Source of the DNA: Bdellovibrionota bacterium
GTDB lineage: Bacteria; Bdellovibrionota_C; UBA2361; JBGSMV01
Reading direction: 5' to 3'
DNA length: 27,115 nt
NCBI GenBank assembly: GCA_044356455.1
Contig: JBIKWF010000057.1
Span: forward strand, 1-27,115
Shown here: positions 2,851-21,469 of the stretch, piece after piece
Numbering within the stretch: the first letter of the stretch is position 1
How the letters are laid out: every line of letters starts with the position of its first letter
Position numbers and translations under genes: made by a program
The notes under the pieces: generated by a model
Databases searched by the model: none
The model's input: the letters and a program-made list of their open reading frames with translations, nothing else
Told to the model about the DNA's origin: nothing

Positions 2851-3057
2851 GGCGCGCCGAATCATTTGCCGCGGGCCTCCGCAATCAATTGCGAATGTGC
2901 AATCGGCGCGGTGGACACATACCTGCCACGTGCCTGGACGGGAGATCTTGCGGCACCGCGGGGACGCGGCGCCCTACCAAGGCATCTGTCCTTCGTTCGA
3001 CCATGCGTTCAGAGCTCTCTTCCCATGAAGGTAGGGCGCCCTGTCCTCAGGGCGCCG
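2846..3057. repeat. cluster of GTAG-family REP elements between convergent murG and trkH
   Basis: ggtagggcgcgccg (2846), inverted cggcaccgcggggacgcggcgccctacc (2951-2978), ggtagggcgccctgtcctcagggcgccg (3030-3057). Confidence 0.75.
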
Positions 3058-3096
3058 CAAGATCTTGCAATCCAGCACACGCGTGGCTTAATGAAA

Positions 3097-6090: not shown

Positions 6091-7950
6091 ATGAGCGCTC
6101 AGCAGCCTGGATCGCAGACTTCTGCGTCCCAAGAGCAATCCCGGGTCCCCCAAGGACCTAAGCAGTATCTTCAGAGTACGTATCGTACTCACACCTGCGC
6201 TGAGCTCTCGAATGATAACGTAGGTAACGACGTTGCCCTTTCGGGTTGGGTAATGCGTAAGCGTGATCACGGCGGCGTGGTCTTTGTTGATTTGCGCGAC
6301 CACTATGGAGTCACCCAAGTGGTGTTCTCAGGCGCCCTCGGCGAAGAGATGCAAAAGATTCGCCAGGAATCCGTGATTGCGATTCGAGGCAAAGTGACTG
6401 CGCGAGGTCCCGGACTCGAGAACCCCAAAATTCCCACAGGGCAAATTGAGGTCGTTGCCTCTCAGCTCAAACTACTCTCACAATGCGAGACGATTCCGTT
6501 TCAAATTGCAGAAGATGACAATGCGCCAGAGCCCGTGCGGCTCAAGCATCGTTTCCTTGAGCTGCGCCGGGAGAAGCTCCACCGCAATATTATCATGCGT
6601 AACCGTGTGATTAAGACTGCGCGCGAAATCATGCATGAACTTGGCTTTGCTGAGTTTCATACCCCCATTCTCACGAGCAGTTCACCGGAAGGAGCACGAG
6701 ACTTTGTGGTTCCCTCCCGGCTTCACCCCGGGAAGTTCTACGCACTGCCTCAAGCCCCCCAGCAGTTTAAGCAACTTCTAATGATCGCAGGATTTGATCG
6801 CTATTTCCAAATAGCGCCCTGCTTCCGTGATGAAGATGCGCGTGCCGATCGCTCACCAGGCGAGTTCTATCAAATCGATATGGAGCTCTCTTTTGTTGAG
6901 CAGGAGGACATTCTGCGCGTCAATGAAAAGCTTATGTATGAGCTCTTTAAGAGATGCTCGTCCTATAAGATCGATGAACCGCCGTTTCCGCGCTTTAGCT
7001 ACCACGATGCGATGCAGCAGTTTGGTTCGGATAAACCGGACCTCAGGAACAGCCTTCGCATCAGTGACGTCTCGAAGGTCTTCTCTGACTCGCAGTTTAG
7101 GGTCTTCCAAGAAGCGCTTAACTCGAAGGGCAGTATCCGCGCCATCGGTGTGCCGGTAGAGGCGCTTCCCTCTAGGAAGTACTTCGATGATACCGTGGAT
7201 TTCTTCTCAAAGCTCGATAGAGAGGAGCCAAGCCTTGGACTCGCTTATCTTTCCTTTGAAGGAGAAGCTTACAAGGGAACGGTGGCAAAGTTCGTTTCCG
7301 CGGATGAAGCGAAAGCCCTTAAAGCTGTGCTTAATCTCCCGGAAAAAGCGGTGGTGTTTCTTGCGGCTGGTCGAACCAATCGGATTCTTCCCGCCATGGG
7401 TAAGCTTCGCACCAAGCTTGGCGCCGAACTTACCAAGCTTGAAGAGAAGGTTTGGCGCTTTTGTTGGATCACCGATTTCCCGTTCTATGAAAAGAACGAA
7501 GAAACCGGCGGAGTTGACTTCAGCCACAACCCGTTCAGTATGCCACAGGGCGGACTTGATTCATTGATGAATAAGCCACCGCTTGAGATCTTGGCACATC
7601 AATACGATTTTGTGTGTCATGGATATGAGCTTGCATCAGGCGGAGTGAGAAATCATACGCCCGAAGTCATGTACAAGGCCTTCGAGATAACGGGCTACTC
7701 CCGTGAAGATGTCGACAATAAGTTTGGCGGCATGATTCGAGCCTTTACCTACGGAGCGCCCCCTCACGGCGGCATCGCTCATGGTATCGAGCGCATCGTG
7801 ATGCTGCTTGCAGGCGAGGAAGCAATTCGAGAAGTAATCGCGTTTCCGCTGGCCCAAAATGGAGAGGATCTTCTTATGGGAGCTCCTTCAACCATTAGTG
7901 AGAAGCAGCTTCGCGAGGCGCATATCCAGCTTCGGCCGCCGCCTAAGTAA
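6091..7950 (+). CDS. aspS: aspartate-tRNA ligase, probably non-discriminating (Asp/Asn)
   Basis: Motifs RTHTC, RDHGGVVFVDLRD, PEGARDF, YALPQAPQQFKQLLM, CFRDED.R.DR, GSDKPDLR, GAPPHGG. The His in RDHGG is typical of ND-AspRS. Confidence 0.97.
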   Translation: MSAQQPGSQTSASQEQSRVPQGPKQYLQSTYRTHTCAELSNDNVGNDVALSGWVMRKRDHGGVVFVDLRDHYGVTQVVFSGALGEEMQKIRQESVIAIRGKVTARGPGLENPKIPTGQIEVVASQLKLLSQCETIPFQIAEDDNAPEPVRLKHRFLELRREKLHRNIIMRNRVIKTAREIMHELGFAEFHTPILTSSSPEGARDFVVPSRLHPGKFYALPQAPQQFKQLLMIAGFDRYFQIAPCFRDEDARADRSPGEFYQIDMELSFVEQEDILRVNEKLMYELFKRCSSYKIDEPPFPRFSYHDAMQQFGSDKPDLRNSLRISDVSKVFSDSQFRVFQEALNSKGSIRAIGVPVEALPSRKYFDDTVDFFSKLDREEPSLGLAYLSFEGEAYKGTVAKFVSADEAKALKAVLNLPEKAVVFLAAGRTNRILPAMGKLRTKLGAELTKLEEKVWRFCWITDFPFYEKNEETGGVDFSHNPFSMPQGGLDSLMNKPPLEILAHQYDFVCHGYELASGGVRNHTPEVMYKAFEITGYSREDVDNKFGGMIRAFTYGAPPHGGIAHGIERIVMLLAGEEAIREVIAFPLAQNGEDLLMGAPSTISEKQLREAHIQLRPPPK

Positions 7951-8979: not shown

Positions 8980-9192
8980 ATGACAGATACCGAACTTCTC
9001 TCCCGCATGGAGGCGCTAGAAATGAAATACGCCTATCAAGAGAGACTTATTGAAGAACTTAACGCCTTGGTCACTGACCATCAGAAAACCATCGATGCGA
9101 TGAGTATTAAAATTAGAGACGCTTTCCAGCAGCTCGCTGAGAACCGCGACAGGACCGAGAAGCCACCGCACGAGAGACCGCCGCACTACTAA
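8980..9192 (+). CDS. slyX: SlyX family protein
   Basis: R...LE.K.AYQE..IEELN..V coiled coil and C-terminal E.PPHY signature; alternative start 8944. Confidence 0.9.
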   Translation: MTDTELLSRMEALEMKYAYQERLIEELNALVTDHQKTIDAMSIKIRDAFQQLAENRDRTEKPPHERPPHY

Positions 9193-9213
9193 TATCCCCA
9201 GACGCGATGAGAG

Positions 9214-9241
9214 GGTAGGGCGCCCTGTCCTCAGGGCGCCG
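9214..9241 (+). repeat. GTAG-family REP identical to the copy at 3030-3057
   Basis: ggtagggcgccctgtcctcagggcgccg, 28/28 identical; overlaps the DoxX stop codon. Confidence 0.85.
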
Positions 9242-9719
9242 TAACACCATCCACAGAAGTTTTGCAGCGCTTCGCAATTAGCGCATCAACGGAATACCGT
9301 CCCGCACCAAACAAAAACACGAGTACAGCAGCCAGCAAGAATAAAAAGGGCGGTGCCTCAAGAAAGCCATCCGGATTAGAGAAAATTCCCAAAAGCTCTT
9401 CGCGATGCGCCGTCGCGTAGGCAACCACCATAGTTCCGATGAGCGGTATTGGAACTATCTTCGAGCCGGCCCCCAAGGCAAGAAGTAGTCCCCCAACAAG
9501 CTCGGTACCGGCTGCCATCACCGCTTGTTGCTTCGCCATGGGAATGCCAAGTGAGGTGAAGAACTCAACGGTTCGGTCGAAATTGATGAACTTCCCCCTA
9601 CCGGTAAGAAAGAATCCAATTCCCCATTGCAAGCGTATGATGAGTAAAAGGACATCTCGCGCGTGTGGAGCCAAACGATCATGCAGACTCGCGTATGTGT
9701 GGTATATCTTCTTAATCAT
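9231..9719 (-). CDS. DoxX family membrane protein
   Basis: LL.IRL..G.GFF.TG.GK, F.SLGIP, ELVGG.LL.LG, M.VAY.TAH, GAGRYSVD. Confidence 0.9.
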   Translation of the reverse strand: MIKKIYHTYASLHDRLAPHARDVLLLIIRLQWGIGFFLTGRGKFINFDRTVEFFTSLGIPMAKQQAVMAAGTELVGGLLLALGAGSKIVPIPLIGTMVVAYATAHREELLGIFSNPDGFLEAPPFLFLLAAVLVFLFGAGRYSVDALIAKRCKTSVDGVTAP

Positions 9720-10065
9720 ATAGTTTCGCTTAAAGCTCCCTACCTAAGGGGGATCGATTAGCAAGTCGCCCCCTGAGATTGCTTATAAAGTTGCCGGGGC
9801 TTCTTCCCTTGCCTCTTCTACTGAGTGTCAGAGGGACAGGAATCGTTACAAGCATATTTTGTTTCTTAGGTACGCGCAGTGGGAGATTTGCGGGGGGAGG
9901 GAGGCCAGGGCGCCGTGGACGGGCTTTCCAGAATACCAGCCGGAATACTTTTATACGCTTTCGCCTCACATTTCAGTTACTTAAATGCAGGCTCTCGGTT
10001 GATCTCTCGCCCAGAGAGCGGTTAATCTCTCCCAAGCGTTTAGACGCATAAAGCTTCTTTCTCTC

Positions 10066-10103
10066 GCCCGAGTGATGGAATGGTAGACATACAGGACTTA
10101 AAA
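10066..10103 (+). pseudogene. 5' half of intronless tRNA-Leu(UAA), disrupted at the anticodon loop (attL)
   Basis: GCCCGAG-TGATGGAATGGTAGACAT-A-CAGGA-CTTAAAA, then non-tRNA sequence; the acceptor strand pairs with CTTGGGC at 19717-19723. Confidence 0.9.
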
Positions 10104-10159
10104 GTCATGTGCTCCACTCCTGATTCCGGGTACTTGGAAGTTTAGCGGCGGATGCCGCT

Positions 10160-10209
10160 TGTTGTAGGGTGTTGAGGGTTGTTGACAGGTGTTGTGAAGA
10201 ATTGCGGAA
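10160..10209 (+). repeat. four TGTTG-N5 repeats at 10-bp period (putative integrase arm-type sites)
   Basis: tgttgtaggg tgttgagggt tgttgacagg tgttgtgaag followed by aattgcggaa; counterparts at the right island end. Confidence 0.6.
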
Positions 10210-10252
10210 ATTTTCGGATAGAAAATTTCCGGTGAGCAGAAAAGTTAAATAT

Positions 10253-10684
10253 GCCGGGGTGATGGAATTGGTAGACATACAGGACTTATAGAGAAAATGA
10301 GCCACGGAGCGGTGACGTTCCGATGGGATGCTGGCTAATTCGGTGAAGCCCCTTCCGTCCCCTAAAGGGGCCGAGACGAGGTAACGCCGAGCTAAATCAT
10401 CCGGGTAAAACCGGATGTAAATGTGTAGAGATCATACACCAGCCATCCCCCGAAGCCTTCTTGTCCACCGCATCTTTAGCGGAGGTGGAGGCGGCGGGGG
10501 ATGAAGACATGATCCAGACCACGAACTTTGAATTGAAAGATTCAAAGGCGGTGAAAACCGAAGGTTAGTTCGCAGAATTTGAAATAATTTCTGCGGCTAG
10601 CCCCGACGAAGCCTTGGCGAAGTCGGGATGGTAAGAAAATCCTGGATCCGAAAGGGTGTGCGGGTTCAATTCCCGCCCTCGGCA
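10253..10684 (+). tRNA. tRNA-Leu(UAA) with group I intron; exons 10253-10287 and 10636-10684
   Basis: Spliced product has acceptor GCCGGGG/CCTCGGC-A, anticodon arm CAGGA-CTT^AAAA-TCCTG, long variable arm, T arm GCGGG-TTCAATT-CCCGC; CCA not encoded. Confidence 0.93.
10288..10635 (+). ncRNA. group I self-splicing intron (348 nt) after U34 of tRNA-Leu(UAA)
   Basis: 5' exon ends in U with IGS-like GAGCC; P aattcggtgaag (10337), Q aacgccgagc (10383), R gtgtagagatcatac (10423), S gaagacatgatcc (10503); P3 GCTGG/CCAGC; P7 GATCAT/ATGATC; terminal G at 10635; no internal ORF. Confidence 0.92.
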
Positions 10685-10810
10685 TTTGTCTTGGCTTGGC
10701 GCGCAGAGCCTATATAGCCGGATTGCGTATCGAGGCCCGGACCTGCCCGTCCGGGGACTTTCAAAACGGGGACCTAGTAGAACGTTTTGAGGCGCAATTT
10801 GCTGCATTTA

Positions 10811-10850
10811 GGTTGCAAAACTTAGCAGAAAACGCTAAGTTTTGTGAACC
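10811..10850. promoter_or_regulatory. inverted repeat, probable AbiEi autorepression operator
   Basis: ggtt-gcaaaacttagc-agaaaac-gctaagttttgt-gaacc immediately before the abiEi ATG; AbiEi antitoxins are known to bind promoter inverted repeats. Confidence 0.55.
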
Positions 10851-10852
10851 AA

Positions 10853-11641
10853 ATGTCGAATTCAGAGTCTTTCCTCAATAAACTCCAAGCCCAAGGGCGA
10901 ATCGCCTTCACTACTGTGGAGTATGCCGCTGCCCTTTCCCTTAGCCCTACAGCGGCGATGCACTCTCTTCTTCGCCTAAGACGGAAGCAGGAAATTGCCT
11001 CGCCCGTGAGAGGATTTCACGTGATTCTTCCCCCGGCGGATCGAGCCAACGGCTCTCGCCCTGCGGACGAGTTCGTCGACTATCTCATGAAGTTCCTGAA
11101 GTCTTCCTACTATGTCGCACTTCTCTCAGCGGCAGAAATTCAGGGAGCTGCGCATCATCGCCCACAGATGTTTCAAGTCATAGTGACTAGTCGGCGCAGG
11201 GCGATACGATGTGGCAACGTCCGCATTCAATTTCTCGTCAAAGGGTCTATAGATCGATTACCGACTACGAAGCATAAAGTCAGGACTGGCTATCTGACGG
11301 TTTGTACGCCGGAAGTTACTGCCTTTGATCTCGTTGCCTATCAAACGAAGGCGGCAGGAATAGACAACGTCGCAACGGTGCTCTCGGAATTAGCCGAAAG
11401 AATCTCTGCTCAAAAGCTACTGGAGGCTTCTAAGTTCTTCGAGATTGCAACCGTCCAACGGCTCGGCTTTATCCTTGATAAAGTGGGAGCAACGGAGATT
11501 GCCAATCCACTTGAGGGGGAAGTTCGGAAACGAGCCCCTCGCTCCGTGGTACTTGTACCGGGAAAGAGGTCCGCCCGTAACGTGGTGACTGACAAGCGGT
11601 GGCGCATCATTATTAACGACATCGTTCAGCCTGACCTATGA
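10853..11641 (+). CDS. type IV TA antitoxin, AbiEi family
   Basis: N-terminal wHTH-like region, YYVALLSAA..HG-like (IQGAAHH.PQ), TPEVTA.DL, QRLGFIL, W.II.N; ATGA overlap with the toxin. Confidence 0.88.
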   Translation: MSNSESFLNKLQAQGRIAFTTVEYAAALSLSPTAAMHSLLRLRRKQEIASPVRGFHVILPPADRANGSRPADEFVDYLMKFLKSSYYVALLSAAEIQGAAHHRPQMFQVIVTSRRRAIRCGNVRIQFLVKGSIDRLPTTKHKVRTGYLTVCTPEVTAFDLVAYQTKAAGIDNVATVLSELAERISAQKLLEASKFFEIATVQRLGFILDKVGATEIANPLEGEVRKRAPRSVVLVPGKRSARNVVTDKRWRIIINDIVQPDL

Positions 11642-12501
11642 TTCCAGAATTATTTATTGAGCAGTGGAAGAGTCATGCGCCGTGGAGCGGCGCCCATCAA
11701 GTTGAGCAAGATCTAGTACTTTGTCGGGCATTGGTTGAGATTTACTCACACCCATTACTGGCGCAAAAACTTGCCTTCCGCGGAGGCACAGCGCTGCATA
11801 AAGTGCATCTCAAGAATGCGGCACGCTACTCCGAAGACTTGGATTTTCTTCAGATTGAGCCCGAACCGATCGGGCCAACTTTCGATGCCCTTCGATCGAT
11901 TCTCGATCCCTGGCTTGGGGAGCCGCGTTGGGAATTGAAGGAGGGGTTAGTGAAACTTCTCTATCGGTATCGTGCCGAGTCCGATGGTCGGCCTATGAAA
12001 CTGAAGGTCGAGATAAATTCTCGCGAGCATTTCGCTGCCAAGTCTACCGTGCGCATTCCATTCAGGGTTCAGTCGGAGTGGTATACTGCCGCGACCGAGG
12101 TTACATCTATTTCTCTCGATTGGCTCTTGGGGAGTAAACTTCGTGCACTTTATCAGAGGCGCAAGGGGCGTGATCTATTTGACCTGTGCCTCTCACTTCA
12201 AAGCAAATTAGTAGACGCTGAATCGATCGTAAGATCTTTCCAGCTCCATCTGGATGGCGATGGAGCGCAGATCTCTCGTGCGGAGTTTGAAAAGAATCTG
12301 TATCTAAAGTTAAGAGACTCTGTTTTTCTTCAAGATCTGCCACCATTGCTTGGTGCTGGCGCAGAGAATTTCAACCTTCATTCAGCGCATGAACTGATAG
12401 CGAAGGAGATCCTATCTCGTTTGCCGGGACATCCATGGAATCAGGCAGGGGAAGAGGAGCAACAACGAAAGCGCAAGAAGAAACCCGCGGGGAAGGAATG
12501 A
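11638..12501 (+). CDS. type IV TA toxin, AbiEii/AbiGii nucleotidyltransferase
   Basis: QVEQDL, LAFRGGTALHK, RYSEDLD, KVEIN, KLRALYQRRKGRDLFDL. Confidence 0.92.
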   Translation: MIPELFIEQWKSHAPWSGAHQVEQDLVLCRALVEIYSHPLLAQKLAFRGGTALHKVHLKNAARYSEDLDFLQIEPEPIGPTFDALRSILDPWLGEPRWELKEGLVKLLYRYRAESDGRPMKLKVEINSREHFAAKSTVRIPFRVQSEWYTAATEVTSISLDWLLGSKLRALYQRRKGRDLFDLCLSLQSKLVDAESIVRSFQLHLDGDGAQISRAEFEKNLYLKLRDSVFLQDLPPLLGAGAENFNLHSAHELIAKEILSRLPGHPWNQAGEEEQQRKRKKKPAGKE

Positions 12502-13022
12502 CAGTCTTCTTCACCGCCGATACGCACTTCGGGCATTCTAATGTCATACGCTATGACAAGCGGCCCTTTCGCGATGTCACCGAAATGAACGAAATTCTAA
12601 TCAAGAATTGGAATCGTACCGTCGGAACATCAGACACCGTATATCACCTCGGCGATGTTTCTATTCTACGACCTGAGAAGACGCGCGAGATACTCGATTC
12701 ACTTAACGGCAAGATATTTCTGATTCGTGGAAACCACGACAAGGCAGCCGAGCACAAGCTTTGCGCTTCGCGTTTTGAGTGGATCAAGGATTACTTCTTC
12801 TTGGGTCTTAATGGTGGGATTAAGATTGCTCTGATGCACTACGCCATGCGGGTCTGGGATCGTAAGCATTACGGAAGCTGGCATCTCTATGGGCATTCAC
12901 ACGGCAAGCTGCCACCAGCGGATGGTACGTTCGCGGTTGATGTGGGTGTGGACAGCTGGAATTACACCCCAGTTTCACTCGAACAAATCAAAGATGTTAT
13001 GCCTCGAGTATCTAGGAGTTAA
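12498..13022 (+). CDS. calcineurin-like metallophosphoesterase
   Basis: ADTHFGH, YHLGD, RGNHD, HY, LYGHSH, DVGVD; ATG 12498 overlaps the abiEii TGA. Confidence 0.9.
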   Translation: MTVFFTADTHFGHSNVIRYDKRPFRDVTEMNEILIKNWNRTVGTSDTVYHLGDVSILRPEKTREILDSLNGKIFLIRGNHDKAAEHKLCASRFEWIKDYFFLGLNGGIKIALMHYAMRVWDRKHYGSWHLYGHSHGKLPPADGTFAVDVGVDSWNYTPVSLEQIKDVMPRVSRS

Positions 13023-13024
13023 AG

Positions 13025-14323
13025 TTGAGTTCTGCGAGAAGTGCAATCAAAGATGGTGTAGGAAGCCTCGGCGCGCCCTGGCTAGTGCGCATTCGCTGGG
13101 CAGCCGTATTTGGCCAACTTCTAGTCTTCCTTGGCGCGAATTGGTTAATGGGGATTTCACTTTCCTGGGGTCCCTTTCTGATTGTTTCAGCAGTCGTCGC
13201 TTTCTCTAATATATTTCTATTGCTGCCTCGGGGGAGCACGTGGCTTGAAGCGCGACGTTCGCAAGGAATTGTTCTCGTCGCTGACGTACTTTTGCTTACC
13301 GCCCTGCTTTATTCTTATGGAGGGCACACAAATCCGTTTAGCATGGTGTATCTCGTGCACGTGGTGCTTGCGGCACTATTATTGGGCTCGGCGTGGACGT
13401 GGGGAATCTCAATTTTTTGCTCCCTTTGTTATGCCTTTCTTTTTCGTTGGTATTTGCCTGTCCCGGAATTATCAATGGGGCACATGCATGGAAGCGGTGA
13501 CGAATTTAATCTTCATCTTCAGGGGATGCTTGTTGGCTTCGTTCTTATTTCTTTCCTTGTGAGCGGCTTTTTGCAGAGGATGCGAGCGGAAATTGATTGG
13601 CGAGAGAAGGAATTAGGGCGCAGGCGCTCGAATGAGGAAAAACTTGCTGCCGTCACTACTATTGCAGCATCCGTTGCTCATGAATTGGGCACTCCGCTTG
13701 GTTCGATGATGCTTGTGGTCGATGATATTTTGGCGGAACTTCGCCAGGGCGGAGATGATTCAAATATTGGCAAAGATGTCGGAGTTCTTCGTGCCCAGCT
13801 CGATCGGTGCGCGGAGGCTATGAGGCGTCTTGGGCAGAATTCTGGTGAATTGTTCGGTGAAATGCCGCAAGAATTCTCAATCAAAGATCTGCTTGAATCG
13901 ATACATGGTGGACTAGCGAGTGCCGATGCCAGACGCGTGCATATAAAACCTGACGGCGCCGTCCAGTCGGTGGTGTTGCCGATGGAGGGTGTGCGCCACA
14001 TCATTTCAGCCGTAATTAAAAATGCGCTTGAGGCAAGCATCATTGGCAAGGGCGTCAGCGTTTCAGTCAATGGAACCAGTAAGGCGATTCACCTTACGGT
14101 CGAGGATTGCGGAAAAGGGATGAACGCGGAGGATTTGCAGCGAATCGGGGAGCCTTTCTTTACCACCAAGGACAGCGGTCGGGGAATGGGCCTAGGGCTT
14201 TTTATAACTAAGCTTTTCTCAGAAAGATTAGGTGGTGCATTCAAAATTGAAAGTACCGTCGGCAAGGGTACAAAAGTTGAGATTGAGCTTCCGCGAGTTG
14301 TAGCCTGGGAGCCTGAGTCATGA
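13025..14323 (+). CDS. RegB/PrrB/ActS-like membrane sensor histidine kinase
   Basis: L.RIRWAAV.GQ, GG.TNPF, H-box AASVAHELGTPL, KNALEA, D.GKGM, GEPFFTTK, GMGLGLF; start codon uncertain (TTG). Confidence 0.88.
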   Translation: MSSARSAIKDGVGSLGAPWLVRIRWAAVFGQLLVFLGANWLMGISLSWGPFLIVSAVVAFSNIFLLLPRGSTWLEARRSQGIVLVADVLLLTALLYSYGGHTNPFSMVYLVHVVLAALLLGSAWTWGISIFCSLCYAFLFRWYLPVPELSMGHMHGSGDEFNLHLQGMLVGFVLISFLVSGFLQRMRAEIDWREKELGRRRSNEEKLAAVTTIAASVAHELGTPLGSMMLVVDDILAELRQGGDDSNIGKDVGVLRAQLDRCAEAMRRLGQNSGELFGEMPQEFSIKDLLESIHGGLASADARRVHIKPDGAVQSVVLPMEGVRHIISAVIKNALEASIIGKGVSVSVNGTSKAIHLTVEDCGKGMNAEDLQRIGEPFFTTKDSGRGMGLGLFITKLFSERLGGAFKIESTVGKGTKVEIELPRVVAWEPES

Positions 14324-14838
14324 AGTACCTAGTAGTGGACGATGATACTACGTTTCGAGAACGACTTGTCTTGGCACTTAAGAAGCGCGGCGATGAGGCC
14401 GTTGGTGCTGCTAGTTCCAGAGAGGGACGTGAGGTCGCCAAGGGATTCAATCCAGATCGCGCCATCGTTGATTTGCGAATGCCAGGAGATTCAGGGCTTC
14501 AGTTGATTTCGTGGCTGCGTACCGACCAGCCAGCATTGCCGATCGTCGTGCTCACCGGATTCGGGAGTATCGCTACTACTCAGGATGCAATCCACCGGGG
14601 AGCCATGAGCTATTTGACTAAACCCTGCCCGGTAGAAAGAGTTATCGAAGCTTTCTCACCCTCGAAGTCAACCGATTCTAAGCCACTTCCCGTACCTTCA
14701 CTTGATCAAGTTGAATGGGAGCACGTGCAGCGTGTTCTTGCTGATTGCGGCGGAAACGTCACGCATGCGGCCAAGGCGCTAGGAATGGACCGCCGTTCTT
14801 TGCAGCGTAGGCTCGCCAAAGCTCCAAAGCTGCGCTAG
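14320..14838 (+). CDS. RegA/PrrA/ActR-like response regulator
   Basis: Receiver domain VVDDD/DLRMP/LTGFGSIAT/KP and RegA-type tail VEWEHVQRVL..CGGNV..AA..LGM.RRSLQR.LAK. Confidence 0.92.
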   Translation: MKYLVVDDDTTFRERLVLALKKRGDEAVGAASSREGREVAKGFNPDRAIVDLRMPGDSGLQLISWLRTDQPALPIVVLTGFGSIATTQDAIHRGAMSYLTKPCPVERVIEAFSPSKSTDSKPLPVPSLDQVEWEHVQRVLADCGGNVTHAAKALGMDRRSLQRRLAKAPKLR

Positions 14839-14841
14839 CGG

Positions 14842-14922
14842 TGCGGCACAAATGCCGCATCCATTTTAGTCTTAAATACAGTTATAGAATCTATGCTCGA
14901 CGAAGTGTGACATGCGTCGCAC
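14842..14922. promoter_or_regulatory. two RegA/RegR-box-like palindromes
   Basis: TGCGGCA-caaa-TGCCGCA (14842-14859) and GTGTGAC-atgc-GTCGCAC (14905-14922) resemble the GCGNC...GNCGC RegA/PrrA consensus. Confidence 0.55.
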
Positions 14923-14980
14923 CGAGCAGGTTTTCTCCGGGGTAGTGCTATCAAGTGCTGCGCCCAGAAGGAGTTGGTTC

Positions 14981-15463
14981 ATGGGTATCTGCTGTCTGTT
15001 GGCAGGTCTCGGAGTATTGCTCACGTCTCTCTGCCTTGTTGGCTGGGTTCTACTTACGGACCGACGGTGTGGCCTCTGGTTGCTTGGTGGGACGGTGGTG
15101 TTTGTGGTGCTTCGCCTTACGGTGTGCACGGAATGCCAAAATCCTTACCACAAGGAGATGCTCTATTGCGGTGCGCCACCGGTCACTCAAGAAGTAGCAA
15201 GCCGCGAGTTTCTCTCCGAGGACCAGATCGCTCGGAACCAATTTCTTCAATCTTTCTTTGAGAAAGGGGTTTGGATCTACGGGCTGACGGCTTTGTCACG
15301 GGCGATATTCCTGTTGGGAACGACCAAGCGGGAACTTGTGATCGGCATCTACAAGCAGAGTTGTGGCTGCGCTTGCGCTCTGAAGAATCGTGTCTGGTCA
15401 TCGGGCAAGACGAAGAGTTGCGACTGTGGATCTGTTGGGGGATCTGGTGTTCTGCCTAAGTAA
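14981..15463 (+). CDS. Cys-rich hypothetical membrane protein
   Basis: RBS AAGGAG before ATG 14981; two N-terminal hydrophobic segments; CC, CTEC, CGCAC, CDC motifs. Confidence 0.6.
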   Translation: MGICCLLAGLGVLLTSLCLVGWVLLTDRRCGLWLLGGTVVFVVLRLTVCTECQNPYHKEMLYCGAPPVTQEVASREFLSEDQIARNQFLQSFFEKGVWIYGLTALSRAIFLLGTTKRELVIGIYKQSCGCACALKNRVWSSGKTKSCDCGSVGGSGVLPK

Positions 15464-15534
15464 ATGAGGCGTCGTGTCATTTACAATCCGTGTCCCTTCG
15501 CAAGAAGGGGGTTTTTACGAAAGGAGGGGAGCCT

Positions 15535-15846
15535 ATGTGCCCTCTCTGTTTGGCGGCGTTGGTCGCTCAGGTTGTGTTCTATGTCACGGCGGGCATCTGT
15601 CTCGTCGTGATCACTGATCTGAAGGTCGGGCTTCCGCTTTCTCTCGGAACCTTGTCGATGGCGGCAGGGAATATGTGGGGATGGTGGAGCGTTCCCAACT
15701 GGATGCTGTACGTGCTCGGAGCGATGCTCTTGGTGCGCGGTCTCTGGGTGCTTGCAAAACACGAGCATAATTGGGTTCGTCGTTTGGCACTGAGGATCCG
15801 TGGCTGGCTTAAGCGAAAGCTTCGGCCACTAGTGTACGGTTCATGA
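15535..15846 (+). CDS. small hypothetical membrane protein with N-terminal CPLC
   Basis: Strong RBS AAGGAGG before ATG 15535; about 3 TM segments; basic C-terminus. Confidence 0.65.
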   Translation: MCPLCLAALVAQVVFYVTAGICLVVITDLKVGLPLSLGTLSMAAGNMWGWWSVPNWMLYVLGAMLLVRGLWVLAKHEHNWVRRLALRIRGWLKRKLRPLVYGS

Positions 15847-15926
15847 GGCTAGTGAGGTCGTGCCTACAAACGATCTTAAAAACGTTCCTTTTCGGGGGAA
15901 CGAAGGTTTTGAAAGTGAGGTTTGCA

Positions 15927-16580
15927 ATGTGCATCTATCATGAGGCGGTGCGGCTGCCTGGTGTTTCGGCGCAAGAGGCGCTGGCGCTTGCGGTGCTTCC
16001 TGGGTTCGAGCGGGGACATCCGTTCCTGCGTTGGTTCCGGGAAAATCCTGGAACGAGCGATTCCTGGGCGGTGAAGGCTCTTGATCAGCTCGCGGTCGCC
16101 GCGTGTGATGATGGGCTTGTGTCTCGACTGATCGCATTTCCGGAGGATCAGGGCAAAGGTCCTGAGGCGCTGGAACTGCTGCGGCAGACTCTGGGAGGAA
16201 AGGGTGCCCTTCGGCCCTGGACCGGTGAGAAGAGTGCACTGAAGACCATCTACCACGAGGCCCTGCTCCTGCCGGAGCTTGGTAATGAGGTGGTGGTCGC
16301 TCTCGGTGCTCTGCCTGGTTACGAGGTGCGAAAGACCTGTCTCGGCTGGTACGGCGAGAATCCTGGTTCAAGCGCTGAGTGGCAGGTGGCGCTCTTTGAT
16401 AGGTTGGCTCAAGCGACCTGCAAGCCCGGCGGCCTCTCTGATCAGCTGCGTGTGCTCGACCCTAACCCGGTCAATGCTCGCGCCGCTTTGGATTCGGTCT
16501 CTCAGGCTCTCGGACTCGCTGCGGCTACGTGTGGTACTTCTCCCGGAAAACCGAAGAAGCCCGGTTGCTGCTGTGGCTGA
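15927..16580 (+). CDS. hypothetical protein with internal tandem domain duplication and CCCG tail
   Basis: RBS GAGGT before ATG 15927 (alternative start 15843); two repeats IYHEA..LP..LPG.E..W..ENPG.S..W.V..D.LA.A.C. Confidence 0.75.
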   Translation: MCIYHEAVRLPGVSAQEALALAVLPGFERGHPFLRWFRENPGTSDSWAVKALDQLAVAACDDGLVSRLIAFPEDQGKGPEALELLRQTLGGKGALRPWTGEKSALKTIYHEALLLPELGNEVVVALGALPGYEVRKTCLGWYGENPGSSAEWQVALFDRLAQATCKPGGLSDQLRVLDPNPVNARAALDSVSQALGLAAATCGTSPGKPKKPGCCCG

Positions 16581-16705
16581 TCGCGGAGTTTTAGTTTCGT
16601 CGGAAGCGTTCGAAACATACCTGCGGGGATGCTTAATGCACAGGTTTCATTACTCAAGGTTCCATTTTCCCCGAAAGGAACCAACTTTTTTAGTTGGCTC
16701 CAAGA

Positions 16706-18220
16706 ATGTCGGAAGAGTTAGAAAAAACAGAGAGTAAATGCTGCGGTACCTGCGGTTGCCGTAATGCGTGCGCGGTTTCGCCGAAAATTGATCCATTGAG
16801 CGCTGCTTTACTTACGGACAAATCTGTAATCGTTGAAGCGGTTAAATCGAAGGGTTCGCCGCTTAACTTTGTGATGCCTGAGACTGTCGTCAGAAACCGT
16901 GAAGGCTTCAGCGCTGTACTACGTAGCAATGGACTGGCAGGCGAAGTGCTGTTCACATCGAAGCCTAATAAATCGCGGTCAATCCTCTCTAGCCTTGCGC
17001 TTGTTGATGCGGCAGTGGATGTGTCTTCTAAGGGAGCGCTCGTGCACTCGCTTGGATGCGGCATTCGTGGTAATAGAATTCAGACTTCCGGTCCGAAGTC
17101 TCAAGAGTACTTGTCTTCTGCGCTCCATCACGGAACAACGGTCAGCATCGATAGTTTTGATGAGCTACAGCAACTAGCCGAGATGCTGAGGGGTAATAGT
17201 GATTTACCCAACGCGCGCTTCTTAATTCGAATCTCCGGATTCCAATCGGAGCGCGTGAAATTCTCGCCGTCTGATGCCCCATTCGGGATTCGGTTCGAGA
17301 GAATTTCTGAGGCGCTATCAATAGCAAAGACACTTGGATCGCGGGCCACGTTTGATGGAATACATTTCCATCTATTGAGCGGCGATAAAGATGAACGTCT
17401 AGTTGCGTTTGAAAATGCGTTGGAAAGCATCCGGCACGCCTTCCAGATGGGGCTTCATCCCAAAGTGATCAATATAGGCGGCGGATTTAAGATTCAATAC
17501 GCAGCACTGTTAGATGAGTGGCAGCGCTTTCAAAGTTATCTACGTGCCTCAGTGCTTGGGAAAGTTAAGCCCATTACGTGGGATGGCTCGGGGCTCGGAC
17601 TACGAGCCGAGGAGGGAAGGATTGTCGGCGCACCCGCATTCGCCGATCACTTTCCAGCAGAGACTGGACCCGCAGCGCTCAATACCTTTCTCAATCAAAG
17701 GTCACCTCTATTCGATAACTGCTCCGTAGCCGAACTGATCCGCGACATGATGCTAGAGCTACGCGTTGAGCCTGGGCGCGCCCTATTGGATTGCGCTGGA
17801 TTGACTGTGGCCGATATCGCTTCTGTAAAGGAGTCGGCTGCTGGACAGCCACTCCTAATGCTTAACATGAATCATACTAACCTTCTAAGTAGGGAGCAGA
17901 AGTTGCTTACGCAACCGATTTTTATTCCCCAAGCTGCACGGGAGCCATCCACAAAGAGCTACTTTCTATTTGGGAATCTGTGCATCGCAAGCGATCTAAT
18001 TCAGTATCAGAAAGTCTATCCTGGCTTTGAGCCTAAGCGCGGCGATCTCGTGGCGTTTGTTAATACCGCGGCCTACCACATGGATTTTGCGGAAGCTGAA
18101 ATCCTGCATCAGGCTGTTGCTCGCAAAATGGCTGTGTTCGGCAGTGCCGACCAATTTATCTGCCGCGATGATAACTCTGTAAGTCCATCAGAGATCCGCG
18201 CCATTCAGGAGGGAAGATGA
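16706..18220 (+). CDS. fold-type III PLP enzyme, Y4yA-like / diaminopimelate decarboxylase superfamily (copy 1)
   Basis: FTSKPNKS (PLP Lys), HFHL, NIGGGF, EPGRAL, GNLC..SD, NTAAYHMDF. Confidence 0.85.
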   Translation: MSEELEKTESKCCGTCGCRNACAVSPKIDPLSAALLTDKSVIVEAVKSKGSPLNFVMPETVVRNREGFSAVLRSNGLAGEVLFTSKPNKSRSILSSLALVDAAVDVSSKGALVHSLGCGIRGNRIQTSGPKSQEYLSSALHHGTTVSIDSFDELQQLAEMLRGNSDLPNARFLIRISGFQSERVKFSPSDAPFGIRFERISEALSIAKTLGSRATFDGIHFHLLSGDKDERLVAFENALESIRHAFQMGLHPKVINIGGGFKIQYAALLDEWQRFQSYLRASVLGKVKPITWDGSGLGLRAEEGRIVGAPAFADHFPAETGPAALNTFLNQRSPLFDNCSVAELIRDMMLELRVEPGRALLDCAGLTVADIASVKESAAGQPLLMLNMNHTNLLSREQKLLTQPIFIPQAAREPSTKSYFLFGNLCIASDLIQYQKVYPGFEPKRGDLVAFVNTAAYHMDFAEAEILHQAVARKMAVFGSADQFICRDDNSVSPSEIRAIQEGR

Positions 18221-19542
18221 TCCTTGAAGATATTACAGAAGCGATTGGGAATACCCCACTGCTTCGAATTCCAAAATCAGTTACGAAGCTTGAACATATC
18301 GATCTCTTTGCGAAACTTGAGTTTTTCAACCCCTTCGGCTCAGTAAAGGATCGAATCGCCTGGGGTATGATTCGCGAAGCCCTGCCTGGAATTAGGGAGC
18401 GAGGGCAGGGCATAATTGAGAATTCAAGTGGAAATACCGCCAAAGCTCTCGCGGTAATCGCCAAACGTGCTGGAGTTCCATTCAAGCTTGTTAGTGCGAT
18501 GGTAAAAGTCAAAGAGACCAAGGATATTCTTAAGCTCTTAGGTGTCGAGCTTGAGGAGGTTTCCGGCTCACTAAATTGTTACGATCCAAGTGACCCAAAT
18601 GATCCGCAGTACCTTATCGAGCGAGAGGTGGCGCGCGCGCAAGGGAAGCTCTTTTTTACCTCTCAGTTTACTAATGAGTTAAATCCTAAAACTCATCGGG
18701 ATACTACGGCGGAGGAGATTGTTCGCGATCTTGGCTCAGTTGATTATTTCTGCTCAGGCCTTGGTACAGCAGGGTCAACTTTAGGAATCGCCGAGCGCCT
18801 AAGAGAGGTTAACTCAAAACTCAAGCTAATAGGAATAACGGCGGGTAAAAGTGATTTTATTCCCGGAATCAGAACGGTCGATCAGCTTCTTGAGGCAGGT
18901 ATTTTCACCCCTGAAAAGTATGATGAAATCGTTACCGTTGAATCGAGCTCAGCGATTGATGGTGTACTGTCCCTCATACGTGAGTGCGGTGTCTTAGGCG
19001 GTCCGTCTTCTGGCGCGCACCTTCAAGGCGCTCTCTCGTATCTACGTAAGATCGACAGCACGCTTACTAGTCGGGCAACTGCGGTAACAATCGTTTGCGA
19101 TCGGGTAGAGTGGTATTTGTCTTATATTCGGGAACGTCGCCCTGAGCTCTTTGGTGAAAAGAGAAAGTCTTTATCGATATTTTCAATTGACCCGCATCAG
19201 GTTGCGCGTGCTCCAGGTGTTTCTTTCAAGGATACAGAAGCCTGGGTAGCCGAGAACAATGCGCTTGTTGTCGACATCCGCGCTGCAGTTGCCTTTGAGC
19301 ACGGAAGTTTTCCAGGCGCCGTGAATATTCCGAGTGAGACACTTGAAAAGCTCTTGGATTCGAGAAGTCCTTTTGTTGGGGTCGAGAGAGCCGTGTTATT
19401 CGTTTGCCCCGTAGGTGATCAGTCTCGTCGATTTGCCGCTCAGCTCACTAGGCTGGGGGGTAGGGGATTTAGTCTCGAAGGTGGGCTTATGGCATGGAGA
19501 AGCTTTCGCAAGGTTAACGAGGGTGAATCGGCAGAGCTTTAA
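18217..19542 (+). CDS. cysteine synthase family (fold-type II PLP) - rhodanese fusion (copy 1)
   Basis: IGNTPL, KLEFFNPFGSVKDR, ENSSGNT, GLGTAGS, GPSSGA; C-terminal VDIR..F..G..PGA.NIP, VCPVGDQS, LEGG..AW. Confidence 0.9.
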   Translation: MILEDITEAIGNTPLLRIPKSVTKLEHIDLFAKLEFFNPFGSVKDRIAWGMIREALPGIRERGQGIIENSSGNTAKALAVIAKRAGVPFKLVSAMVKVKETKDILKLLGVELEEVSGSLNCYDPSDPNDPQYLIEREVARAQGKLFFTSQFTNELNPKTHRDTTAEEIVRDLGSVDYFCSGLGTAGSTLGIAERLREVNSKLKLIGITAGKSDFIPGIRTVDQLLEAGIFTPEKYDEIVTVESSSAIDGVLSLIRECGVLGGPSSGAHLQGALSYLRKIDSTLTSRATAVTIVCDRVEWYLSYIRERRPELFGEKRKSLSIFSIDPHQVARAPGVSFKDTEAWVAENNALVVDIRAAVAFEHGSFPGAVNIPSETLEKLLDSRSPFVGVERAVLFVCPVGDQSRRFAAQLTRLGGRGFSLEGGLMAWRSFRKVNEGESAEL

Positions 19543-19557
19543 CAGGCACTATGAAGG

Positions 19558-19672
19558 TTCCGCAATTTTTACGTAAATACCTCCAATACCCTTCAACAAA
19601 TTCTTCGTGCTAAGTGGCGAGAATGTTTATTTGTAGGACGTTGAAGGGCCTCGACCGATAATGTACCCGGGA
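19558..19672. repeat. right-end repeats of the island (putative arm/core-type sites)
   Basis: ttccgcaatt (19558-19567) is the inverse of aattgcggaa (10200-10209); cctccaatacccttcaacaa is the inverse of the TGTTG array; direct copy ttgtaggacgttgaaggg (19631-19648); gtacccgg (19663-19670) is the inverse of ccgggtac (10126-10133). Confidence 0.6.
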
Positions 19673-19724
19673 ACTTAAAATCCTGGGGCCAAAAGCCGTG
19701 CGGGTTCAAGTCCCGCCTTGGGCA
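19673..19724 (+). pseudogene. 3' half of intronless tRNA-Leu(UAA) (attR)
   Basis: ACTTAAAA-TCCTG-GGGCCAAAAGCCGT-GCGGGTTCAAGTCCCGC-CTTGGGC-A; no 5' half immediately upstream. Confidence 0.9.
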
Positions 19725-19873
19725 TACTGATACAAGCTGCCGCTGACGACGCTCTCGCCACACAGCGGACCCCGGGCGTAGCCTCGGGCGAAGTCGGGTC
19801 CCGCCGGACCGCGGCTCAGCCTGAAGTTTAGACGGGTTGGGCATTCTGTTTCAATCTGGGCGTGGGAGGACGG

Positions 19874-19990
19874 ATGCTATCAATCCGGAAGAACTTTGAG
19901 ATGTTGGAGAAGTGGATGGCGCAGTCGATAAAATTTAAGGTCACCCACCATGTGATGGAGTTTTTCGGCCTCTGTAACAGTTGCCAGTAG
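19874..19990 (+). pseudogene. C-terminal remnant of a Fur-family (possibly Zur) regulator
   Basis: Manual translation MLSIRKNFEMLEKWMAQSIKFKVTHHVMEFFGLCNSCQ* matches the Fur C-terminal F.v..H..E..G.CxxC pattern; an in-frame stop lies shortly upstream. Confidence 0.65.
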
Positions 19991-19996
19991 AACATG

Positions 19997-21469
19997 CTAT
20001 CCAACAGAGCGAAGCAACTGACAGAGAGCTTTAGTCTCCGCCAAGGTCTCGGTGCCCACACTGAGGCGAATTCCTGGAGAAGCTCCGCGATCCATAACGC
20101 GACTCGAGCATACGCGCGCGACATCAAAACCAAAGCTTGTGCCATGGACTAATGTAAGTGCTTTGCTCTGAGCCTTCGTCACCAGCGTGCGACAGAGCTC
20201 TTTGCAAGACTCAACAGATGAATAGGGTTCCCCATACTGAAGAAAAAGAAGAGTAGTATTAGGAGATTTTGAGGGGCTGACCGTCGTTACAGATCCTTTC
20301 TCCGTCAGAAGATGCGCTTCCATGTACTGCGCGTTCCGCCTCATTCGTGAGAGGCGGCGCTCAAGTACCGAGCCAAGCTCCGCCAAATCGGCGCCCGATT
20401 TTGCCCAAAAGATAGGTAGTGAGCAGGCTGCGGTGTCGGAAATTATGGTGCCTGAAAGCTGGCGCAGTCTGTCAAAGGAATTGGTGGAACCATAGGGGAA
20501 CCAAGTCACCAGAAGACCTCCCGGAACGGTGTCTAGTCCGAGCTGGAGATACTTGGCGAGGCTATGAACTATAACCACTGAATAGCTTGGCTGGTTCGCC
20601 TGGAGCCAGGCCACGATCTCCTTTGTTTTTAATCCGCAGGTATCGTCGATTATGAGAGTAAAAGTTTCATCAACATAGTTTGCTAAGAGCTCCATACACT
20701 CCTGCAAATTGGGACTGGCTAGCGTGAAGCAGTTCGCCACTGAATCGAGCAACAAAGCATCATAGGTCTGTGTTTGAAGTTCAGTTCGAAGCTCTTCCGC
20801 CGATTCCTCGTTAAACTCGCGATAGTTCTCCTTTGGTAAAAGACGCTGCAGTAGTTCTCGGTTTTCGCAGTAACAAGAAGTCCCGATGAGAACACGAGGT
20901 AACTTCCTGCTCGTTAAATATTGCATCAACGTTGAGAAGGCCGCCATGCCGCTGTGAAATGACCACGCCGCTAAAGGAGCCTTATCTTCGAAGCCAAACA
21001 GTTGCAGGAGCCGACTCTCTAAAGATTTCGCTATATAGTGACGCTCGCGTTTATAGAAGAAAAAATTGTCCTCTATGGGGCCCAGATTAAGTGCGGAGGC
21101 GCTATTCTTGTCAGTCCCAACTATAACGGGAGACTGCCACTCGTGGCCGCAATAAATTGAGGCGAGTTGGCGTATGAAGAACCTCATCGAATCGATATTT
21201 CGGTGCTTCAATCGAAGAAGTTCATCCTTGGTCGTAGGGTAGGAGCGGGCCCCAGTTGCCGCCTCTCTCGCCTCAGTGCCGAGACTTTCCAGCGCCTTTT
21301 GCAAGGTGAGATAGAAAGGCAATTGCTCTTGGCTTAGAGCGTGATGTCCGAGTTGGTCTGAGGTGAATTCATTCACTCGAGAAAGCAGTAGCCTAATGAG
21401 AGTGGCCTGGTCTTGAAGATCGGCCCTTAGCTCGTCAATCGAGTCCTTGAGGCATGATATCTCGTCCAT
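19997..21469 (-). CDS. divergent fold-type I PLP enzyme, Cys/Met metabolism (transsulfuration)-like, with N-terminal extension
   Basis: FHSGMAAF, IIDDT, VHSLAKY (PLP Lys), GGLL, GTSFGF, IRLSVG; coupled to the upstream gene (TAATG overlap). Confidence 0.75.
   Translation of the reverse strand: MDEISCLKDSIDELRADLQDQATLIRLLLSRVNEFTSDQLGHHALSQEQLPFYLTLQKALESLGTEAREAATGARSYPTTKDELLRLKHRNIDSMRFFIRQLASIYCGHEWQSPVIVGTDKNSASALNLGPIEDNFFFYKRERHYIAKSLESRLLQLFGFEDKAPLAAWSFHSGMAAFSTLMQYLTSRKLPRVLIGTSCYCENRELLQRLLPKENYREFNEESAEELRTELQTQTYDALLLDSVANCFTLASPNLQECMELLANYVDETFTLIIDDTCGLKTKEIVAWLQANQPSYSVVIVHSLAKYLQLGLDTVPGGLLVTWFPYGSTNSFDRLRQLSGTIISDTAACSLPIFWAKSGADLAELGSVLERRLSRMRRNAQYMEAHLLTEKGSVTTVSPSKSPNTTLLFLQYGEPYSSVESCKELCRTLVTKAQSKALTLVHGTSFGFDVARVCSSRVMDRGASPGIRLSVGTETLAETKALCQLLRSVG

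Follow-up and report, generated by a model that had tools for sequence, protein, structure and literature searches.

The stretch of DNA analyzed here, called the window below, is the entire contig JBIKWF010000057.1 (27,115 bases) of the 216-contig draft genome of a Bdellovibrionota bacterium (GCA_044356455.1), which is 93% complete. It harbors a host gene for tRNA-Leu(UAA) that is split by an island of about 9.6 kb (10104-19672), as well as a second tRNA-Leu(UAA) gene, carried by the island itself and interrupted by a group I intron. The genome of the window is designated G000 and those of relatives by other G-numbers, while C-numbers stand for contigs and L-numbers for loci. The features around which the analysis turns are the following:

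6091..7950, + strand: aspS (aspartyl-tRNA synthetase, AspRS), host marker upstream of the tRNA-Leu(UAA) locus (Pfam domains tRNA-synt_2, OB and GAD)
10066..10103, + strand: orphan 5′ half of the host tRNA-Leu(UAA), comprising the 5′ strand of the acceptor stem, the D arm, the 5′ strand of the anticodon stem and the anticodon loop (sequence, joined fold)
10104..10252, + strand: left (P′) arm of the island, a trailer with a hairpin at 10145-10158 (repeat search)
10253..10287, + strand: 5′ exon of the island-borne tRNA-Leu(UAA) (intron-aware ARAGORN, alignment)
10288..10635, + strand: group I intron of 348 nt, IC3-like, lying between CUU and AAAA, where it splits the 7-bp core (Rfam Intron_gpI, covariation)
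10636..10684, + strand: 3′ exon of the island-borne tRNA-Leu(UAA) (a tRNA-Leu(taa) fold results when the intron is removed)
19558..19672, + strand: right (P) arm of the island, where the arm-type repeats point both ways (CCCTTCAAC at 19589-19597, GTTGAAGGG at 19640-19648)
19673..19724, + strand: orphan 3′ half of the host tRNA-Leu(UAA), beginning with the right copy of an 8-bp repeat at 19673-19680 (sequence, joined fold)

A preliminary description, made from the letters of the window alone, had taken the two outer halves for one broken gene, and the evidence gathered here agrees with it. Joined by their coordinates, the halves score in ARAGORN as an 82-nt tRNA-Leu(taa) with an acceptor stem (GCCCGAG/CUUGGGC) paired at 7/7 positions including one G-U, whereas chimeras between an outer half and the inner gene, the acceptor stem of which is GCCGGGG/CCCUCGGC, exhibit C-C and A-C mismatches in one case and a G-G mismatch in the other. 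The gene is broken within its anticodon loop: the 5′ half ends with the 7-bp crossover core CTTAAAA (10097-10103), and an 8-bp direct repeat, ACTTAAAA, is present in both halves (10096-10103 and 19673-19680). What follows the left junction is not tRNA sequence, and no 5′ half is found at the right one; neither restores the gene, and the complete island-borne copy is present instead, as had also been described. Moreover, the AspRS gene lies directly upstream of the same tRNA-Leu(UAA) locus in G033, G072, G064, G070, and G075, that is in six genomes counting that of the window, a synteny that marks the split gene as the one of the host.

Contigs from four lake-water metagenome runs, aligned to positions 9000-20800 of the window, provided both the empty site that the preliminary description had proposed to look for and a control of the misassembly that it had named as a possible refutation. 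In run X3, a contig of 746 nt joins 9645-10095, without difference, straight to 19673-19726, with one other letter, thereby skipping 9577 bases with 8 letters common at the joint; it represents the same flanks and an intact gene devoid of any island. Most bins of the island had no cover in this run, a fact that was used only alongside the contig joining across the island. Two contigs of run X2 match the window without difference, the first (13,554 nt) over 12590-20800, spanning the right junction, and the second (270 nt) over 10074-10343, spanning the left one. The island, the right junction and the cover of the left junction are thus found again, and misassembly is not borne out. The host tRNA-Leu(UAA) gene is split by a true and precise insertion inside the tRNA gene. 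No circular form of the island was seen in the contigs, which cannot show rare forms, and a joint from 19668 to 10160 in runs X1 and X2, considered as the attP of this island, proved to be the paralogous junction on contig C101 of the same genome. The 80 bases just past the host 3′ half (19727-19806) are replaced by 25 other letters in the X3 contig, which may reflect a small insertion or a strain difference; a stretch similar to these bases also follows a tRNA 3′ half on contig C198, described below.

The inner gene is complete and starts about 150 nt inside the left end of the island, where the preliminary description had placed an intron-containing second tRNA-Leu(UAA). ARAGORN, with introns allowed, calls a tRNA-Leu(taa) with a 348-nt intron at 10252-10685, which we read as a gene at 10253-10684. 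With its default settings the program reports 0 tRNAs in the window and Rfam at its gathering threshold likewise finds nothing there, the intron-aware and E-value modes being required. The intron matches Rfam Intron_gpI with 42.1 bits (E 3e-9, for a gathering score of 50), and homologous introns reach 65.5 bits (G084), 47.1 bits (G000:C101), and 42.5 bits (G021). In a consensus fold built from 4 aligned copies, the tRNA stems are kept across the intron and compensatory changes occur in 32/89 pairs, the U-G pair of the P1 helix at the splice site is kept in 4/4 copies, and the intron ends in G in 4/4. An insertion between CUU and AAAA, a U at position -1 paired with G in P1 and a G at omega are the characters of type Leu.3Ug introns (IC3). 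By its predicted structure, the intron would have to self-splice for the spare tRNA to work. A simple scan for promoter and terminator signals around the 5′ half and the inner gene (9950-10850) found none above shuffles.

Intron-bearing copies were found in 4/124 genomes of the phylum that were searched, namely G000 (two copies), G003, G021, and G084, and the intron-bearing tRNA had no plasmid match. Wherever the upstream DNA is readable (G000 C209 and C101, G021, G084), the intron is located inside the spare tRNA of a mobile element, and not in a native gene. An orphan 5′ half precedes the spare in G000 C209, G021, and G084, the copies with readable upstream DNA in this respect, and an integrase gene follows it in G021; the copy of G003 lies at a contig end.

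The scan of the whole genome for other tRNA-Leu(UAA) genes, also proposed in the preliminary description, gave a two-sided result. None of the 47 tRNAs called by default ARAGORN in the 216-contig, 93% complete assembly is a tRNA-Leu(taa), and no uninterrupted copy exists there. A second intron-bearing gene, with 94% identity over 347 nt, is distributed over G000:C101:55976-56709 and G000:C69:4858-5064. A palindromic repeat element, the two ends of which close both contigs, disrupts its intron at CTAG, and the C101 copy is preceded by a right arm, the core and a left arm, an attP-like or tandem junction. Every tRNA-Leu(UAA) gene found in the assembly is thus island-borne. TTA represents 6.4% of leucine codons and occurs in 1642/1768 open reading frames (ORFs) of at least 300 aa, a crude ORF set that includes spurious frames. 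The suggestion that the island might be indispensable is therefore sustained as far as the wide use of TTA and the missing uninterrupted copy go, but the repeat-interrupted copy on C101/C69 would turn it into a dependence on islands in general, not provably on the island of the window alone. A third copy of the right arm is found at G000:C198:1996-2338 (- strand) with a different orphan 3′ half that has the same acceptor strand; past this half, about 130 nt are 78% identical to window 19725-19853, and there is no integrase nearby. The C198 site may be a second host locus or captured host DNA.

Elements of the same architecture are encountered in relatives, where they carry an integrase. Their arrangement consists of an orphan 5′ half, CTTAAAA, a linker starting with GAAAGTGA, a complete tRNA-Leu(UAA), a tyrosine integrase of about 450 aa, cargo genes, an arm, CTTAAAA, and an orphan 3′ half. 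It was read in the sequence of G033, G029, G015, G040, G064, G072, and G021, which belong to the same order as the genome of the window, and by coordinates in G067, G073, G075, G080, G006, and G081, among 91 genomes searched. Within this architecture, the integrase is present in G033, G072, G064, and G021, and G029 and G015 show its start only. It follows the spare tRNA directly and exhibits RH..HY motifs. Its Pfam signal is weak and restricted to the SAM-like N-domain. PF00589 did not match it up to an E of 1, nor did any NCBIfam family or any sequence in the PDB; it is 25-33% identical to annotated integrases on plasmids. Among the cargo of the relatives are type I restriction, Mrr and a Zorya-like gene. 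We also scanned one genome per species for the exact pattern, which yielded 45 matches in 44 loci. Twenty of them, distributed over 19 loci, are junctions with an orphan 5′ half, and every one comes from a Bdellovibrio-type metagenome-assembled genome; the other 25 are chance matches. These junctions are followed by a complete intronless tRNA-Leu in 13 cases, by an intron-bearing one in 1 and by another orphan in 1, and 4 are cut by contig ends.

Several observations bear on the ownership of the complete gene. The orphan halves differ among hosts whereas the incoming tRNA and its trailer are constant, and in G033 and G000 the outer halves pair mutually, as do the two acceptor strands of the inner gene. 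It is therefore the element that bears the complete gene. Rows of two or three orphan 5′ halves in G040, G064, and G073 appear, from their sequence, to record serial take-overs of the locus. Accordingly to the relatives, in which tyrosine-integrase elements target the anticodon loop of tRNA-Leu(UAA), the earlier classification as a tRNA-targeting integrative element is sound for the family, but the copy in the window has no integrase. In the relatives that have the integrase, a 16-bp perfect inverted repeat, made of the core with the linker start and of the reverse complement of both, brackets the spare tRNA (L051:2580-2720, also L055, L061, L070, L081, and L093); it could be a processing stem insulating the spare from the upstream orphan half, or a second core-type site. 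Locus L021 (G033:C222) encodes at 2478-3068 a second, small PF00589 recombinase (196 aa) beside the right junction, in addition to the family integrase.

The two ends of the island look like the arms of an attP site, judging from their repeats. In the left arm, a 10-bp arm-type repeat (TGTTGnnnGG) occurs about four times at 10159-10198, ahead of a perfect hairpin of 11 bp at 10205-10231, and homologous arms are found in G000:C101 and G084:C28. The right arm is 82-88% identical to arms in G000:C198, G000:C101, G001:C16, G001:C73, G031, G034, and G048, the last three being genomes of other families of the same order. Elsewhere in the genome, clusters of the arm motif occur, under a strict rule, only on C101 and C198.

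The same island is present in G001, a genome of the same genus, with 96.9% identity over window 10663-12635 and 95.5% over 12506-19724. The host flanks of G000 were not found in G001 at the DNA level, which fits a recent horizontal movement. At its left end, the G001 island (G001:C27) exhibits a complete intronless tRNA, the 5′ half of which equals the orphan half of G000, then 46 nt, and then, of the tRNA belonging to the island itself, no more than the 3′ exon, the T arm of which contains a 52-nt insert. This T-arm insertion of about 52 nt is common to two tRNA-Leu copies of G001, L022 (C16) at 2850-2950 and L023 (C27) at 1960-2050. Contig G001:C16 holds an arm, the core, a tRNA 3′ half, TTAAA, and then the trailer that opens the left arm of G000 (87% identity over 133 nt, window 10101-10231 against G001:C16 14080-14212); in G000, this trailer comes directly after the core. 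A frameshifted IS91-type transposase gene begins next to the right arm of the same contig (L022, 14440-15700; Pfam Y2_Tnp, with the zinc-finger motif in another frame). Upstream of the arm in G000:C101, the first ~25 codons of this gene are still present, and the DNA upstream of the arms of C198 and G034 resembles it.

The island body is occupied by the following genes:

10844..12501, + strand: AbiEi antitoxin (10844-11641) and AbiEii toxin (11638-12501) (Pfam PF09407, 130 bits; PF08843, 120 bits)
12435..13022, + strand: metallophosphoesterase (Pfam Metallophos, 30.8 bits)
13025..14838, + strand: RegB/PrrB-like histidine kinase (13025-14323) and RegA/PrrA-like response regulator (14320-14838) (Pfam, NCBIfam)
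14912..16737, + strand: four ORFs without Pfam or NCBIfam match (14912-15463, 15490-15846, 15843-16580, 16279-16737)
16694..19542, + strand: PLP-dependent decarboxylase (16694-18220) and cysteine-synthase-like PALP protein fused to rhodanese (18217-19542) (Pfam, NCBIfam)

The RegB/RegA-like pair scores 207 bits with NF033792 and 142 bits with NF033791, both under the curated cut-offs. Neither an integrase or transposase nor phage structural or replication genes were found among the island ORFs with Pfam and NCBIfam. The four PF00589 matches of the genome are all on contigs other than that of the window, one of them beside a tRNA-Arg(CCT), and tblastn found no family integrase in G000. The genes for the PLP decarboxylase and the PALP-rhodanese protein are distant paralogues (30% and 39% identity) of two host genes at 21469-24250 (- strand), so that the pairs 16694-19542 (+) and 21469-24250 (-) stand in mirror orientation around the right junction. 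Outside of the island, a repeat of about 30 nt at 9211-9247 and 3027-3060 is common to many other contigs of the genome.

Altogether, we propose, with a probability of about 0.8, that 10104-19672 is an integrase-less island of a Bdellovibrionota tyrosine-integrase family that inserts at CTTAAAA and complements the host tRNA rather than restoring it. The site of recombination for elements of this family would be CTTAAAA, the 7-bp anticodon loop of tRNA-Leu(UAA), and because the att site shares only this short core with the target, the host gene is left, as the window shows, as an orphan 5′ half on the left and a 3′ half on the right. The decoding of UUA would then be taken over, as the arrangement of the genes suggests, by the complete element-borne tRNA-Leu(UAA) just inside the left end. 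The island may have lost its integrase or may never have had one. Its left arm could derive, through deletion of a 3′ half, from a restoring arm in which this half preceded the trailer and the arm repeats, a loss that the spare gene would have made tolerable; the deletion may have occurred in the element before integration or afterwards. Precise excision would be impossible without an integrase supplied in trans, and any other loss of the island would remove both a tRNA-Leu(UAA) gene and an AbiE toxin-antitoxin pair. The island is therefore likely fixed in the strain. Complementation rather than restoration, as the preliminary description had put it, hence fits what is seen, since a complete spare is present and no junction restores the gene; in view of the left arm, it is possibly a decayed state rather than a design.

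Several points weigh against this explanation. There is no integrase in or near the island, and its assignment to the family rests on the homology of the att sites and on relatives; a search made without positive control did not detect the family integrase in G001-G004 or G031 either, despite their G000-type arms. The Rfam score of the intron is under the gathering score. The contig over the left junction has only 30 letters left of it, for a rule of 31 letters. Finally, G070 carries a family element without an orphan 5′ half, showing that restoring-looking states exist in the family, and the left arm of G000 looks, when compared with G001:C16, like a restoring arm minus its 3′ half, so that the non-restoring state may result from a secondary deletion.

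These last two points feed an explanation by decay and not by design, in which an ordinary restoring integration, with the host 5′ half linked to a 3′ half from the element, was followed by a deletion of about 52 bp, removing the 3′ half between short TTAAA repeats and tolerated thanks to the intron-bearing copy. It would lead to an identical end state, with complementation as a by-product of redundancy. The order of arm, core, 3′ half, TTAAA and trailer on G001:C16, the island of G001:C27 lying behind a complete intronless tRNA and the element of G070 all speak for such a history. On the contrary, non-restoring junctions with other linkers recur in G000:C101, G084, G021, and 19 loci of other species, and the family is therefore regularly without a restoring half. 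Furthermore, the window has four A's at a place where only three would remain if the G001 sequence had undergone a TTAAA-mediated deletion, and the deletion could equally have happened in the element before its integration, which is the proposed explanation itself. We regard decay as possible, if rather unlikely, for the origin of the non-restoring state, though not for the present state. An assembly chimera within the metagenome bin, which a 216-contig draft might invite, given that the locus contains repeats by which contigs C101, C69, and C198 are broken, is hardly conceivable and was rejected: the independent X2 contigs reproduce the island with its right junction and cover the left one, and a homologous island with the same right junction exists in G001.

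Insertion in the manner of a transposon, with 8 bp of the target duplicated and, for instance, an IS91-like rolling-circle transposase as agent, would account for the direct repeat that flanks the insert, and the degraded IS91-type gene beside the arm of G001:C16, with its remnants upstream of the arms in G000:C101, C198, and G034, adds to its appeal. We nevertheless rejected it as very improbable, given that the same 7-bp anticodon loop forms the junction in dozens of loci from many genera, that relatives have a tyrosine integrase beside the spare tRNA, that arm-type 10-bp repeats in both orientations are typical of attP, and that none of the island ORFs is a transposase. The outer halves might also constitute a true split tRNA gene of the Nanoarchaeum type, transcribed apart, paired through their acceptor and anticodon stems and a leader-trailer helix, and joined or used in trans; a complementarity of about 10 nt between 10124-10133 and 19663-19673 would allow for such a helix, and a promoter could lie in the conserved stretch upstream of the 3′ half. 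Nonetheless, the gene is uninterrupted in the near-identical island-free strain of run X3, the leader varies among copies without matching changes in those trailers that lent themselves to comparison, and the promoter scan, limited to 9950-10850 around the 5′ half and inner gene, was negative. As a complete copy lies 150 nt away, the halves are not the sole source of this tRNA, and the multi-orphan arrays of relatives fit serial integration. This alternative was rejected too, its likelihood being next to nil.

The proposed family of complementing islands raises the question of what the intron does in the spare gene. Since the intron separates CTT from AAAA within the core, the target of the integrase is no longer present in the DNA of the spare. 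We tentatively suggest, while giving it less than even odds, that the intron shields the spare tRNA, the core being removed from the DNA and the spliced RNA being normal. Competing elements of the family could then not split the spare, nor could the attP of the element itself recombine with it, and the intron-bearing island would become the last and permanent owner of the only UUA decoder of the cell. In favor of such a shield, relatives with intronless spares show rows of up to three orphan 5′ halves, i.e., repeated take-overs. Similarly, the same island in G001 (~96%) has a dead spare without 5′ exon and intron, with a different complete tRNA upstream, whereas the spare of G000 is intact. 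If true, this would link a classical self-splicing intron to the competition between mobile elements, with the protection of an integrase target as selective reason, and would offer a route for the spread of such bacterial tRNA introns. From a practical standpoint, annotation without intron-aware tools takes such loci for tRNA fragments or for loci devoid of tRNA-Leu(UAA).

The mechanism proposed for this family is not new, as it has already been published as tRNA-dependent lysogeny for actinobacteriophages, among which Fionnbharth/K4 and cluster L (Guerrero-Bustamante and Hatfull, 2024, mBio, PMC10865867). In the portions of that article consulted, the phenomenon is considered as possibly prevalent beyond actinophages, and prophage Lj965 of Lactobacillus johnsonii is cited. 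Both systems rely on a tyrosine-integrase element and on a short common core inside a tRNA gene (~10 bp there, 7-8 bp here), leave no functional tRNA at either junction and exhibit arm-type sites flanking the attP core. As far as those portions describe the phages, the elements reported here differ by being non-phage, with a toxin-antitoxin pair, regulators and enzymes in the window and defense systems in relatives, by their Bdellovibrionota host and tRNA-Leu(UAA) target, and by a spare located 20-150 nt from the core. Serial orphan 5′ half arrays, a group I intron in the spare and a copy without integrase further set them apart. tRNA-dependent lysogeny, shown so far only for phages of actinobacteria, would thereby extend to non-phage islands of another phylum, where it appears recurrent enough to turn over the host tRNA-Leu(UAA) repeatedly, an essential gene being replaced by successive mobile copies.

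Canonical tRNA-gene islands with a crossover in the anticodon loop were reportedly described by Williams in 2002, a work also cited in a preprint on Anabaena. From the consulted parts of the Islander article (PMC4383910) and of that preprint (10.64898/2025.12.09.693284), such islands resemble ours in the tyrosine integrase crossover within the 7-nt anticodon loop, in their tandem accretion, and in having two unlike ends, one with the integrase by the tRNA and the opposite one with a displaced piece of tRNA. Islands of the canonical kind bring the displaced end along and thereby rebuild the gene, whereas here neither junction does so and an orphan 5′ half stays. The intron is similar to the tRNA-Leu(UAA) group I intron of cyanobacteria and plastids, of type Leu.3Ug and subgroup IC3 (K. 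P. Williams, 10.1101/2020.01.27.920355), with which it shares the CUU/intron/AAAA position, the U at -1 in the U-G pair of P1, the G at omega and, with a score under the gathering threshold for the copy in the window, the match to Rfam Intron_gpI. It differs by its presence in Bdellovibrionota and by residing in the spare tRNA of a mobile element rather than in a native gene. A model for tRNA-Thr of Caldiarchaeum subterraneum, in the excerpt consulted, has a mobile element deliver an intron into the attB part, where its presence would prevent later invasions (Sugahara et al., 2012, PMC3293823). In both cases a mobile element would deliver the intron of a tRNA gene, but that excerpt deals with archaeal protein-spliced introns and a restoring integration, as opposed to a bacterial group I intron and a whole spare gene here. 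A literature search found no paper on such elements in Bdellovibrionota, or on tRNA genes of Bdellovibrio that contain group I introns. Compared with these known systems, the distinguishing traits here are a non-phage element family of Bdellovibrionota, its serial replacement arrays and an intron that splits the crossover core of the integrase.

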